Shown here: in pieces, positions 5,738 through 42,011 of the stretch
How the letters are laid out: each line of letters starts with the position of its first letter
Position numbering within the stretch: the stretch's first letter is position 1
From: Planctomycetota bacterium
GTDB taxonomy: Bacteria; Planctomycetota; B15-G4; SIAN01
Reading direction: 5' to 3'
Assembly: GCA_031409275.1 (NCBI GenBank)
Contig: JANNXA010000001.1
Coordinates: 1-46,618, forward strand
DNA: 46,618 bases
Position numbers and translations under genes: made by a program
The notes under the pieces: model-generated
Database searches by the model: none
The model's input: the letters and a program-made list of their open reading frames with translations, nothing else
Told to the model about the DNA's origin: nothing

Positions 5738-5752
5738 GCGCGCGCAGGCTAG

Positions 5753-5912
5753 CAGCCCATTGGAGAACTCTCCGTGTCGCTCGACGGCGTCTTTCAAGCC
5801 GGGACTTCGTCGGAGCTTCTCGACAACTCACCGGGGAGTTGGCTTCAAACCTCCTCCTCGCCCCGACTCGAAATCCACTCGCCGGTCTCGCGGCGACTTC
5901 TCCAACGGGCTG
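5753..5912. mobile_element. 160-bp MITE, copy 1
   Basis: TIR CAGCCCATTGGAGAA...TTCTCCAACGGGCTG (1 mismatch); flanks CTAG (5749-52) and CTAA (5913-16); about 17 differences from copy 3 by hand alignment. Confidence 0.9.
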
Positions 5913-5922
5913 CTAACCCGCC

Positions 5923-8022
5923 TCAGCGTCCCGTGTGTTCGAGCAGCCAGCTCTGCGCCGACTTCGTCTTCCCGCGGCCGGCCGTGGCGCGCGCGTAGGT
6001 GCCGTCCGAGCGCAGCTCGAAGGCCTGCGCCGTGTCATCGAGGTAGGGCTTCAGCCCCTCGCGCAGCACGCGCTGCTTCAGGGCCTTGTCGAGGATGGGG
6101 AACATGGTCTCGACGCGGCGCTGCAGGTTGCGCTCCATCCAGTCGGCGCTCGACAGGAAGACCAGCTCCTCGCCGGCTGCATGGAAATGGCAGACGCGGC
6201 TGTGTTCGAGGAAGCGGCCGACGATGGAGCGAACGCGGATGTTCTGCGACACGCCGGCGATGCCGGGCCGCAGCGAACACATGCCGCGAACGATCAGGTC
6301 GATGGAGACGCCCGCCTGCGACGCCTTCAGCAGCGCCTGCATGATCGCCGGGTCGGTGAGCGCGTTCAGCTTGGCGACGATGGCCGCGGGCCGCTCCGCC
6401 TTCGCCTCTTCCGTTTCGCGGCCGATCAGCGCGATCAGCCGCTCGTGCATCGCGAACGGCGACTGCACCAACTGCTTCAGCTTCGCCACCTTGCCGAGCC
6501 CGGTGAGCTGCTGGAACAACGAGTGGACATCCTCGGTCAGCTCCTCGTTCGCGGTCAGCAGGCCCCAGTCGGTGTAGGCGCGCGCCGTGCGCGTGTGGTA
6601 GTTGCCGGTGCCCAGGTGGGCGTAGCGACGCAGATGGCCGCCTTCGCGCCGCACCACCAGCAGCATCTTCGCGTGCGTCTTGTAACCGACGATTCCGTAG
6701 ACGACGCGCGCGCCGGCGTCCTGCAGTCGCGTCGCGAGATCGATGTTGGCCGCCTCATCGAAGCGCGCGCGCAACTCGACGACCGCGGTGACCTCCTTGC
6801 CCGCACGCGCAGCGCGCATGAGCGCGTCGGCCAGCGGCGAATCGCTTCCCGTGCGATAGAGCGTCTGTTTGATCGCCAGCACTTCGGGATCGGCCGCCGC
6901 CTGCATCGCGAAGTCGACGACGGGCGCGAACGACTCGAACGGCGTGTGGATCAGCAGATCGCCGCCGCGGATCGCCTCGAAGAGGTCGGCGGCTCGCTGG
7001 ACGCGCGCCGCAACGCTCGGCACGAAGGGCGCGAACTTGAGTTCGGGGCGCTCGACCGCGTCGTAGATGGCGCCGATGCGGTGCAGGTTGACCGGGCCGT
7101 TCACGCGATAGACCGACTCGATGGGCAGCCGGAACTGCTCGAGCAGGAAGTTGATGGTGGTCTGCGGGCAGTCGGCAGTCACTTCGAGGCGCATCGCGAT
7201 GCCGAAGTTGCGACGCGTCAGCTCGCCCTTCAGCGCGGCCATCAAGTCCTCGATCTCCTCCTCGTCGACCCAGAGGTCGGAATCGCGAGTGACGCGGAAC
7301 TCGTGGCAGCTCTTCACCTTCATGCCAGGGAAGAGCTCGGCGACGTGACCCTGGATCAGCGCCGACAGCAGCACGAAATCCCACGGCTTCTCGGCCACGC
7401 CGCTCGGCAGGTGGAAGAGGCGCGGCAGCGAACGCGGCGCCTGCACGACGGCCAGCCGCGCGCTGCGCCCGAAGGCGTCGGCGCCTTCGAGCTCGAGGAT
7501 CATGTTGAGCGACTTGTTGAGCACGCGCGGGAAGGGGTGAGCCGGATCGAGCCCCACCGGCGTCAGCACCGGCAGCACCTCCTCGCGAAAGAAGCGGTGG
7601 GCCCACTCGCGTTGCGCCTTCGTCCAGGAGGCCGGCTTGAGCAGGCGCACGCCTTCCTTGTCGAGCTCCGGCAGCAGCACGTCGTTCAGGACGCGGTACT
7701 GCTCGGCCACGAGGTACTGCGCCACGGCGGCGATGCGACGCAACAGCTCCGCCGGCGCGATCTGCGCGGCGCCGAGCTTGGGAGCGCCCTGCGTCAACTG
7801 CTCGCGGATGCCCGCCTCGCGGATCTCGAAGAACTCGTCGAGGTTGTTCGAGCAGATGGTGAGGAAGCGCAGCCGTTCCAGCAGCGGCATCGAGGCGTCG
7901 GTCGCCTGCGCCAGGACGCGCCGCTGGAACTCGAGCAGCGACAGCTCGCGGCTCAGGTACCAGCGTGGGTCGGCGAGGTCGATCTTCGGGGTCGGCGGCC
8001 GCGAGGCGGCGGCATCGGTCAC
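5923..8022 (-). CDS. ppk1: Polyphosphate kinase 1
   Basis: YLSRELSLLEFQRRVL, NLDEFFEIR, HPFP, IHTPFESF, IKQTLYRT, ELRARFDE, KTHAK, GTGNY, GRFLEHSR and SSADWMERN motifs; GTG at 8022 with GGAG upstream; 699 aa. Confidence 0.96.
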   Translation of the reverse strand: MTDAAASRPPTPKIDLADPRWYLSRELSLLEFQRRVLAQATDASMPLLERLRFLTICSNNLDEFFEIREAGIREQLTQGAPKLGAAQIAPAELLRRIAAVAQYLVAEQYRVLNDVLLPELDKEGVRLLKPASWTKAQREWAHRFFREEVLPVLTPVGLDPAHPFPRVLNKSLNMILELEGADAFGRSARLAVVQAPRSLPRLFHLPSGVAEKPWDFVLLSALIQGHVAELFPGMKVKSCHEFRVTRDSDLWVDEEEIEDLMAALKGELTRRNFGIAMRLEVTADCPQTTINFLLEQFRLPIESVYRVNGPVNLHRIGAIYDAVERPELKFAPFVPSVAARVQRAADLFEAIRGGDLLIHTPFESFAPVVDFAMQAAADPEVLAIKQTLYRTGSDSPLADALMRAARAGKEVTAVVELRARFDEAANIDLATRLQDAGARVVYGIVGYKTHAKMLLVVRREGGHLRRYAHLGTGNYHTRTARAYTDWGLLTANEELTEDVHSLFQQLTGLGKVAKLKQLVQSPFAMHERLIALIGRETEEAKAERPAAIVAKLNALTDPAIMQALLKASQAGVSIDLIVRGMCSLRPGIAGVSQNIRVRSIVGRFLEHSRVCHFHAAGEELVFLSSADWMERNLQRRVETMFPILDKALKQRVLREGLKPYLDDTAQAFELRSDGTYARATAGRGKTKSAQSWLLEHTGR

Positions 8023-41191: not shown

Positions 41192-41769
41192 ACGACGACT
41201 CTGCCGACCCCAGCGCTCCGCGTCTGCAGGAGCTGATTCCCGCCGAACGGGTGCGCGAGCGGATCGAGGAGCTCGGCCGCGCGGTGGCAGAGGCGTTCCT
41301 TCGCGACCAAGCGGTGGCGAGCGGCGGGCCGCCGCGACCGCCTCCGCTCTTCGTCGTGATCGCCGAAGGGGCGCGCCGTTTCGCGCAGACGCTGCTGGCC
41401 GCTGCCGCTCGCCATGGCCTTCGCGCCGAGACGCTCGTCGTGCGAGCGCGGCGAACCGAAGGGCAGGAACTGCTGCCGGTGACGATCGACGGCTTCGACG
41501 AGGCGCGCTGCCGCGACCGCGAAGTGGTCGTCCTCGACGACATCGCCGACGAGGGACGCACGCTGGAGGCGGTGGTGGCGCGCGTCACGACGGCCGGCGC
41601 GCGCCGCGTCAGAGTCGGGGTCCTGGTCAGCAAGCACGCCCGCCGCCGCGTCCACGTCACGCTCGACTGGGTCGGCTTCGACGTCGCCGACGGCTGGATC
41701 GTCGGCTACGGCATGGACCTCGACGGCAAGCTGCGCGAACTCGACTGGATCGGAGTGGTCGAGGGGTAG
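41188..41769 (+). CDS. hpt: Hypoxanthine phosphoribosyltransferase-like protein (divergent)
   Basis: GTGA overlap; VVVLDDIADEGRTL PRPP loop; WIVGYGMD..LREL..I C-terminus typical of HPRT. Confidence 0.75.
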   Translation: MNDDSADPSAPRLQELIPAERVRERIEELGRAVAEAFLRDQAVASGGPPRPPPLFVVIAEGARRFAQTLLAAAARHGLRAETLVVRARRTEGQELLPVTIDGFDEARCRDREVVVLDDIADEGRTLEAVVARVTTAGARRVRVGVLVSKHARRRVHVTLDWVGFDVADGWIVGYGMDLDGKLRELDWIGVVEG

Positions 41770-41929
41770 CAGCCCGTTGGAGAACTCCCCGTGTCGCCTG
41801 GCGGCGTCTTTCAAGCCGGTACTTCGTCGGAGTCTCTCGACAACTCACAAGGGAGTTGGCTTCGAACCTCCTCCTCGTCCCGACTCGAAATCCGCTCGTC
41901 AGACTCGCGGTGACTTCTCCAACGGGCTG
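41770..41929. mobile_element. 160-bp MITE, copy 3
   Basis: Perfect 15-bp TIR; perfect GTAG duplication at 41766-69 and 41930-33. Confidence 0.93.
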
Positions 41930-42011
41930 GTAGCGCAACGAACGAGCGGCGCACCGGGGGTCGCGATCCGGTACGCCGCTCTGCGTTCGACGGGGACGTG
42001 CGACTCAGCGC

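Follow-up and report, generated by a model that had tools for sequence, protein, structure and literature searches.

The usual description of a MITE is that of an arbitrary filler set between two transposase ends. Those linked to the IS1182 family of insertion sequences have already been published, and in this respect the family described here is ordinary. According to the accessible part of PMC11578231, MITEPye1 of Paracoccus yeei, associated with ISPye18 of the IS1182 family, is a non-coding, intergenic element that has direct repeats of 4 bp, TIRs resembling the ends of the IS1182 family and a long predicted stem-loop, and its mobilisation in trans has been proposed. It occurs in 1-3 copies per chromosome, against 33 in the present genome, the likeness being one of description, and the same part of that article gives no analysis of a CTAG target, of stop codons or of a shared core (PMC11578231). 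In Methanosarcina acetivorans, 160- and 169-bp MITEs have been linked to ISMac2, also of the IS1182 family, in the portion available of PMC3852290. These share with the present MITE the IS1182 partner, the size class, the 4-bp direct repeat (in the 160-bp family) and a copy number of tens at most, whereas they are archaeal and have inverted repeats of 25-26 bp; here too the likeness is one of description (PMC3852290).

The MITE family and its target site

The window, i.e., the whole stretch of 46,618 nucleotides that was analysed, contains three copies of the element. Their equal length, TIRs and flanks, as given in the initial annotation, were confirmed by coordinates and by sequence:

5753..5912, + strand: MITE copy 1, the older one, with 15 changes from the consensus and one TIR mismatch, 10 bp 3' of the polyphosphate kinase TGA
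5749..5752, + strand: left target of copy 1, CTAG; the right target, at 5913-5916, is CTAA, the duplication being imperfect
5797..5868, - strand (the G.A-loop strand): shared structured core of copy 1, 73.2 bits, with family A in the training set of the model
28246..28405, - strand: MITE copy 2, between convergent genes whose stop codons overlap in the target
28242..28245, + strand: target of copy 2, CTAA, whose TAA ends the TPR-protein gene at 27097-28245 (+)
28406..28409, - strand: second target of copy 2 (CTAA on the forward strand), whose TAG ends the gene at 28406-30541 (-); the relative G004 lacks the MITE but has this TAG
28290..28361, + strand: shared structured core of copy 2, 67.2 bits
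41770..41929, + strand: MITE copy 3, with 2 changes from the consensus and TIRs at 41770-41784 and 41915-41929
41766..41769, + strand: target of copy 3, GTAG, whose TAG ends the phosphoribosyltransferase gene at 41188-41769; the second target (GTAG) is at 41930-41933, and in G004 the stop is the same TAG, with no MITE
41814..41885, - strand: shared structured core of copy 3, 78.3 bits, with loop motifs at 41822-41828, 41836-41839, 41860-41864 and 41872-41877

All three copies are 160 bp long. Copies 2 and 3 differ from each other at 5 sites and from copy 1 at 18 and 17, respectively, in agreement with the first estimates of about 5 and 17. The 15-bp TIR is exact at five of the six element ends in the window, the single mismatch being at the left end of copy 1, and its pattern (up to three mismatches allowed) matches the window seven times, against 1.07 expected, a number reached in 0 of 100 shuffles. 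The duplicated target of copies 2 and 3 does hold a stop codon, as had been claimed (TAA on the forward and TAG on the reverse strand for copy 2, TAG for copy 3), and copy 1 is not on a stop codon. A Pfam scan of 34 of the 35 proteins predicted in the window (all but a 39-aa ORF) detected no transposase domain; the genes were called with a purpose-built codon model, not with a standard annotator.

The genome carries 33 copies scoring at least 100 bits, including 29 of full length, with lengths of 159-175 bp and paired 15-bp TIRs in most of them. The expectation of many copies, drawn from three in 47 kb, was correct as to their existence, but they lie about 11 times more densely in the window than in the genome (33 in 5.59 Mb). 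These elements are shorter than 500 bp, lack a transposase gene, have TIRs and a target duplication, and are dispersed in multiple copies, as is proper to MITEs.

Duplications of 4 bp are systematic, being perfect in 17 of the 33 copies. However, the target is not NTAR, as first proposed, and is instead CTAG with one tolerated change (NTAG/CTAN), a form taken by 15 of the 17 perfect duplications (CTAG 6, GTAG 4, TTAG 4, ATAG 1, CAAG 1, CTGA 1). TAA appears in targets solely as the complement of TTAG, and outside the tetramer the flanks contain no informative wider consensus.

Probable partner transposase and age of the insertions

Matching ends, which had been looked for on an autonomous element, are found in relatives on IS1182-like elements of 1.46-1.51 kb. 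Seven elements of 1462-1511 bp, all from relatives, bear TIRs such as CAGCCCGTTGAAGAAGT between flanks of the same type, with perfect duplications in four of the seven, and the full elements of G021 and G022 have 13 of the 15 TIR bases in common with the MITE. Furthermore, a deleted element of 1150 bp from a metagenome ends in the exact MITE TIR, between CTAG flanks. The full elements in relatives encode a single transposase of 450-460 aa with DUF772 and DDE domains, identified in the three proteins scanned against Pfam as PF05598, PF01609 and PF13751; that of G005, at 452 aa, looks intact. An IS5- or IS701-type partner had been suggested on the basis of the target. Instead, the best NCBIfam match of the four transposases scanned is NF033551 (IS1182), at 163-209 bits against a cut-off of 270, with IS5 models reaching at most 103 bits, below their own cut-offs, and no IS701 match for any of the four proteins. 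Judging from these sequence scores, the partner is likely a divergent IS1182-like subgroup that falls under the family cut-off. Some IS1182 members are CTAG-specific and generate 4-bp duplications; a literature search found no statement of such members.

From the identity of the ends, we infer that the MITE is mobilised in trans. It matches 22 loci only over 13-38 bp at the ends, the interior having no similarity to the IS elements, which does not fit an origin by internal deletion of an IS (type I) and makes it type II-like. The IS1380 element adjoining one copy (C34) was also considered as a partner and discarded, since its ends differ and only the CTAG target is in common.

In this genome, the sole cognate transposase is a broken IS1182-like remnant, one end of which is like the TIR at 11 of 15 positions and is followed by CTAG. 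PF01609 gives two matches, the IS1380 and this remnant, PF13751 matches the remnant alone, and PF05598 and PF13586 give none; an intact cognate transposase was not found by these Pfam profile searches in the assembly, which is 93% complete. As the assembly holds no cognate transposase other than this broken one, the MITE would mostly have ceased to spread.

The claim of recent activity stands only in part. In its favour, 19 of the 29 full-length copies have at most 5 changes from the consensus; against it, no two copies are identical, and neither an intact transposase nor an empty allele was seen. Neither the contigs of four runs, which are evidence of presence and not of absence, at copy 3, nor the joints listed for 27000-43000 included an empty allele. 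The insertion sites are not common to relatives, and in G004 the DNA downstream of the two TAG stops mentioned above is not syntenic. Copies situated 142-145 bp from contig starts were considered as polymorphic insertions, a reading that was rejected as at least two of the three breaks are explained by an adjacent repeat. The genome also contains nested and chimeric elements, namely a MITE copy nested in a family C end and, at C47, an A/C deletion chimera.

Stop codons: target preference and probable selection

The initial annotation had put forward a safe-harbour targeting of stop codons, on the grounds that TAR would be rare outside them. This premise does not hold in this genome, where stops make up just 2% of the NTAG and 11% of the YTAR sites, and where genes contain 89% of NTAG sites; YTAR, for its part, is depleted in coding DNA, which has 36% of its sites although 91% is coding. 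Taking all non-coding sites as a naive null, there is an enrichment, with 11 of 24 testable copies on stops against 4.6 expected (p=0.002), and the same is seen with a short-intergenic null (11 of 21, 5.6 expected, p=0.010). Nevertheless, the enrichment is not significant when gene-proximal sites are taken as the null (11 of 21, 8.3 expected, p=0.16). The mid and long intergenic classes probably contain uncalled genes, so the naive null would be inflated. A further null, excluding promoters, was dropped because the observed copies do occur near starts.

As had been stated, copies 2 and 3 break no gene, and the MITE is almost never inside genes: there are no coding insertions among the 24 testable copies, while about 100 would be expected if tetramer choice alone were acting. 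Zero copies are found at the 20,130 coding CTAC sites, and stops hold five of the six insertions at GTAG/CTAC (uncorrected p=0.003). This excess beside empty coding CTAC sites calls for either very efficient selection or some extra bias.

Such a bias might consist in a true safe harbour, in which the transpososome would be steered to gene 3' ends or off transcribed DNA, beyond its CTAG preference. The excess over the naive null and the GTAG/CTAC insertions are in keeping with it, as are the lack of mid-intergenic copies (0 against 5.6 expected), the zero copies in about 24,000 coding NTAG sites, and the seven of 12 MITEs with the same ends that lie on stops in four other genomes. However, we regard it as quite improbable, taking into account, together with the gene-proximal test and the inflated null, that six copies are at most 60 bp upstream of starts; that orientation with respect to the stopped gene is unbiased (5 same, 6 opposite, among 11 single-stop copies, with the copy stacked with IS1380 included and the nested one left out); that on-stop copies are only 3 of 14 in G010 and 0 of 3 in G003; and that the same bias is found in the unrelated family C, whose ends differ and whose target is TNA (8 of 15 on stops, 3.6 expected). 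Stop-codon targeting is thus not demonstrated, and the target motif together with purifying selection suffices, given the non-significant gene-proximal excess, the same kind of bias in family C and TAG being far from confined to stops. More generally, apparent safe-harbour targeting needs to be measured against a matched, gene-proximal null.

With considerable confidence, we therefore propose a non-coding 160-bp MITE served in trans by an IS1182-like DDE transposase at CTAG-like targets, whose accumulation on TAG stops likely reflects restored stops and purging, not the seeking of gene ends. The transposase would likely cut and paste the element, presumably by a 4-nt staggered cut at a CTAG-like tetramer, and when insertion occurs on a TAG stop the duplicated target would restore it. 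Copies inside genes would likely be purged by purifying selection, and the habit of lying on stop codons would arise from these two processes, as gene-breaking copies are lost.

The shared structured core

The shared core matters more than the family that carries it, since the filler is here fixed, centred and confined to one strand, and recurs under different ends across the phylum. The centre of the MITE is a strongly predicted hairpin (z = -5.98) that carries a pair of G.A-rich loops and is predicted to form on just one of the strands. The same core is present in MITEs with three other end types, presumably IS1380-, IS5- and IS630-like, and of 81 genomes from the phylum 30 were found to contain it. 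We give roughly even chances to the idea that bacterial MITEs some 160 bp long have a modular design, in which the ends, supplied by four or more transposase families, can be exchanged around one conserved, centred and strand-specific core hairpin, whose two G.A-rich internal loops have opposite orientations, and that this core would be a selected cis element, read as ssDNA or RNA by some factor and needed by very short elements for moving or retention. A selected core as such a general step in MITE biology was not found in the literature. If functional, the core would point to an unrecognised interaction with the host or the transposase, and could explain the size of about 160 bp of many bacterial MITEs.

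Alternatively, the core could be functionless, an old foldback spread between elements by end swapping or by nested insertion and deletion, and kept by descent. The nested copy and the chimera described above are in agreement with this, and stem covariation is to be expected anyway because every MITE is a foldback. Yet conservation is highest in the letters of the unpaired purine loops, whereas the stems covary (two-sided change in 14 of 20 pairs), the arms flanking the core are for the most part unrelated from one family to another, and both the centring (41-46 bp per side) and the length (about 157-162 bp) are maintained under different ends, all of which makes descent alone rather unlikely.

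It could also be thought that the host keeps the copies as 3' RNA elements (a terminator, a stability switch or a nuclease site), as reported for ERIC and NEMIS, their position behind stops being selected. The strong hairpin would suit such a role, as would the lower variation of the loop motifs, in which 0.41 copies differ per column, against 2.02 in the remaining interior (29 copies, p=0.002), and for ERIC an orientation-dependent effect on mRNA is described in the accessible text of PMC2229807. But the G.A strand and the mRNA strand do not preferentially coincide (22 sense and 27 antisense at 3' ends, 15 and 12 at 5' ends), the sites are not common to relatives, and Rfam gave no match at gathering score in the window, seven loci yielding only sub-threshold miRNA-type hairpin matches; this explanation is very doubtful. 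No replication-strand bias of the core was found (30 vs 38, p=0.40), core pairs within contigs are on the same strand in 40 of 78 cases (p=0.41), and a relaxed core descriptor was uninformative (565 matches, 359 in the control).

Returning to a selected core, our best guess at its role, tentative and held at somewhat less than even, is a mechanical one, by analogy with the Correia/NEMIS central module: a fold at the centre, or a host protein bound there, may help a stiff stretch of about 160 bp to join its ends. As described in the available part of PMC2229807, Correia/NEMIS of Neisseria is a MITE of about 155 bp whose central module, an IHF site, has been proposed to aid transposition. Unlike the present MITE, it is AT-rich and has TA ends.

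ERIC, also named IRU, is MITEEc1, an IS630-type MITE of enterobacteria. The multicopy intergenic repeat of E. coli K-12 used for comparison, which we take to be ERIC, is not detected by the core model (R1), and with the reciprocal model (R2) 14 of 37 matches (E up to 5) fall on cores, none above chance and none on family A. The IS1182 family, for its part, has only the ends in common with the MITE. ERIC is 127 bp long, has TA ends and is longer in its middle arm, while the present MITE has 160 bp, CAG ends and a 4-bp duplication; by eye, however, the outer purine loop and the tandem G.A pair of the core are also seen in the E. coli repeat, next to an apical hairpin of 6 bp, and this repeat folds better on the G.A strand in 12 of 12 copies.

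Family A in the window and in the genome

The three copies of the 160-bp MITE studied here (family A) have the orientation, flanks and divergence described in the initial annotation, and the terminal inverted repeat (TIR) is present at all six of their ends (one with 1 mismatch), well above chance. The window constitutes the whole of contig C1 of an assembly of 5.59 Mb (55 contigs, 69.4% GC), and contains:

2-1858 (-): ORF truncated by the contig start, sharing 96% identity across 398 bp with the first part of contig C16; no Pfam match at 1e-8
5753-5912 (+): family A, copy 1
21783-26934 (-): cluster of a peptidase C39-ABC transporter, a second ABC transporter and HlyD
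27097-28245 (+): TPR protein gene adjoining copy 2, divergent from this cluster and possibly forming with it a peptide export locus
28246-28405 (-): family A, copy 2
41770-41929 (+): family A, copy 3

When the genome was searched with a profile built from 29 full-length copies, 33 copies were found at no less than 100 bits, mostly of 159-161 bp, five full-length ones carrying an extra 15 bp. Regarding the recent activity previously claimed, 19 of the 29 copies are at most 5 changes from the consensus and the remainder 8-31, with no identical pair among them. The distribution is narrow, since a search of 40 relatives yielded seven places in one genome (G003) and a single 203-bp variant in another (G005:C53, L005:1501-1703), which has two additional short hairpins beside the central structured hairpin, or core.

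Identical 4-bp flanks are found in 17 of the 33 copies and, in TAG-strand notation, these perfect duplications are CTAG (6), GTAG (4), TTAG (4), ATAG (1), CAAG (1) and CTGA (1). Thus, the target is CTAG with one change tolerated, and no preference is visible outside the tetramer. CTAG is under-represented in this genome (observed/expected 0.17); per 1000 non-coding sites, it receives about 21 insertions, TTAG/CTAA 17, and GTAG or ATAG 4.

Other MITE families and siting at stop codons

A search of intergenic DNA revealed three further MITE families (B, C and D), which, from their end types, we take to be of IS1380, IS5 and IS630 type, respectively.

Other MITE families and core-bearing elements of the genome
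Family B: C14:314767-314941 (L193) and about 20 other places; about 175 bp, CCCG ends, CTAG-like flanks
Family C: C45:23765-23922 (L194) and about 25 other places; 158 bp, GAG ends, 3-bp TNA duplication
Family D: C22:286969-287129 (L195) and up to 16 other places; about 161 bp, GTGTCC ends, two subtypes
Low-copy elements, same core, other or decayed ends: L205, L206, L207, L208, L209 (C37, C51, C19, C50, C9)
Low-copy elements, same core, other or decayed ends: C55:290993-291063, C27:87183-87255, C51:31189-31260

Family B is stacked twice on the same target as family A (C7:100229-100568 and C17:1-302), and at C47:3892-4066 and C24:49129-49440 family A is inserted in the CTAA of a family C terminal repeat. 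A subsequent deletion in the C47 element has produced an A/C chimera, possibly a route by which ends are swapped. Other intergenic repeat families (80-300 bp, 7-14 places each) occur on C17, C20, C27, C49, C2 and C55, among them low-complexity arrays rich in GC and, on C2, a 92-bp repeat spaced about 690 bp. In five other genomes, MITEs that share the family A ends measure mostly 157-161 bp and have unrelated arms.

Genes were called with a custom codon model of this genome (4,187; stops TGA 3,492, TAG 547, TAA 126). Twelve of the 33 family A copies abut a called stop, which in one case lies inside the end of another MITE, and an additional copy reaches a stop via a stacked IS1380. Nine copies were dropped from the test: two located at contig edges, two inside family C elements, and five whose targets are decayed or depart from the consensus, one of the five being on a TGA. 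Of the 24 that remain, 11 occupy stops, where tetramer-matched non-coding sites would predict 4.6 (p=0.002). Restricting the comparison to intergenic regions of up to 500 bp gives 11/21 with 5.6 predicted (p=0.010), and restricting it to gene-proximal sites leaves no significant excess (11/21 with 8.3 predicted, p=0.16). Family C, with different ends and a TNA target, occupies TGA or TAA stops in 8 of 15 testable copies (3.6 expected, p=0.012), and family B occupies stops in 3/11 (2.4 expected). Elsewhere, MITEs with family A ends are on stops, among the matches listed, in 3/14 cases in G010, 7/12 in four genomes and 0/3 in G003, counts obtained with the codon model of the present genome, with no null, from part of the matches of each genome (e.g., 30 of 64 ends in G010).

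This siting had been attributed to safe-harbour targeting, TAR being supposedly rare outside stops. Such rarity does not hold: the 26,900 NTAG sites are 89% coding and 2% stops, and the 1,376 YTAR sites 36% coding and 11% stops. Taking into account that none of the 24 insertions is coding, against about 100 expected, something besides the target motif must act, and purifying selection would be the simplest candidate. The genes next to copies 2 and 3 have the same TAG in the related genome G004, where the element is absent, so these stops are probably older than the insertions. Siting at stops is most probably the result of target motif plus selection, which leaves a residue unexplained, 5 of 6 GTAG insertions being on stops.

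A core common to different ends

On its purine-rich strand, the core consists of an outer loop (YRAGGM facing RACGMAG), a short stem, an inner loop (e.g., CGAAG facing YGAG) and an apical hairpin of 6-8 bp, a layout common to the families of this genome and to MITEs with family A ends in others. A strict descriptor finds 57 sites, of which family A accounts for 23, B for 16 and D for 2, a further 13 lying in genes and 3 elsewhere; the reversed genome gives 7. A covariance model (R1) trained without B or C gives 72 matches (33 A, 17 of the held-out C, 15 D, 7 others), family B reaching only 11-19 bits, and matches in 30 of 81 genomes of the phylum. Closest to the family A core is the one in family D (z 5-7). 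In an alignment of 11 sequences, three of them family A, 84.5% of the cells pair, against 62.9% when shuffled, with two-sided change in 14 of 20 pairs, covariation which is partly expected from any foldback, and the loops show little or no variation in sequence. In 29 family A copies, the 22 core loop positions are less variable than the other 106 interior positions (p=0.002-0.004), the loop motif having been defined partly from family A itself. As a sequence feature, a one-strand core common to MITE families is well supported; that it is kept by descent, without function, seems rather unlikely.

The core occupies the centre of the element, leaving 41-46 bp to either side in families C and D, and this fixed centring, together with a near-fixed length under different ends, suggests that geometry lies behind it. 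DNA of about 160 bp is near its persistence length, and a fold or bending protein at the centre of the element would ease the pairing of its ends. In Correia elements, the IHF site has been proposed to aid end pairing (PMC2229807) and, by analogy, the core might be a mechanical aid of this kind, a reading we hold tentatively. RNA-level or other roles take up the remaining probability. The strand of the core shows no link with the neighbouring mRNA (22 vs 27 at 3' ends), making a role in host 3' UTRs less likely, and none with GC skew (30 vs 38). By eye, a multicopy E. coli repeat, presumably ERIC, has core-like loops; R1 did not detect it, and of 37 weak matches of the reciprocal model (R2) 14 fall on cores, none scoring above chance matches, so this link is suggestive only.

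Probable partner transposases and published parallels

An IS1380 that looks intact (476 aa, scoring above the NCBIfam cut-off) adjoins one family A copy at L001:958-2644 (C34:170283-171969); it is placed on the TAG stop of a gene, shares its CTAG duplication with that copy, and has ends different from those of family A. The initial annotation had related the targets to IS5- and IS701-type elements; the ends point instead to an IS1182-like partner. Contig C55 carries an IS1182-like transposase remnant, lacking the first 150 residues and with an in-frame TGA, whose terminus matches the TIR at 11 of 15 positions and is followed by CTAG. Of two solo ends (C17:24908 and C55:279220), one resembles the right end of this remnant and the other corresponds to the leftmost 37 bp of the MITE. 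Used as a query against 42 genomes, the remnant has matches in 15, and seven of 15 loci examined contain elements of 1462-1511 bp with near-identical TIRs and CTAG-like flanks. NF033551 (IS1182) is the best match of all four transposases scanned, at 163-209 bits, below its cut-off of 270, and all three that were compared with Pfam have DUF772 and DDE domains. In a metagenome contig, a deleted element of 1150 bp has a right end exactly equal to the TIR, with CTAG on both flanks. The end and target pattern is present in 33 of 301 genomes of the phylum; the interior of family A has no match in those of IS elements with the same ends. From these shared ends, we infer that family A would be mobilised in trans by such a transposase.

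Family A is a real, IS1182-like and apparently unnamed MITE. Literature searches (titles and the openings of abstracts) and keyword passages of the following papers contained no description of it, of IS1182 MITEs sited at stop codons, or of a core common to different end types: PMC6382973, PMC7002104, PMC5678879, PMC10969869, PMC3281130, PMC11602168, PMC3184786, PMC2229807, PMC8027508, PMC11578231 and PMC3852290; it could figure among the 1.4 million MITE sequences accompanying PMC11602168, or in ISfinder. These sources do provide parallels, namely MITEPye1, an IS1182-linked MITE (PMC11578231), and the ISMac2-linked MITEs (PMC3852290, table).
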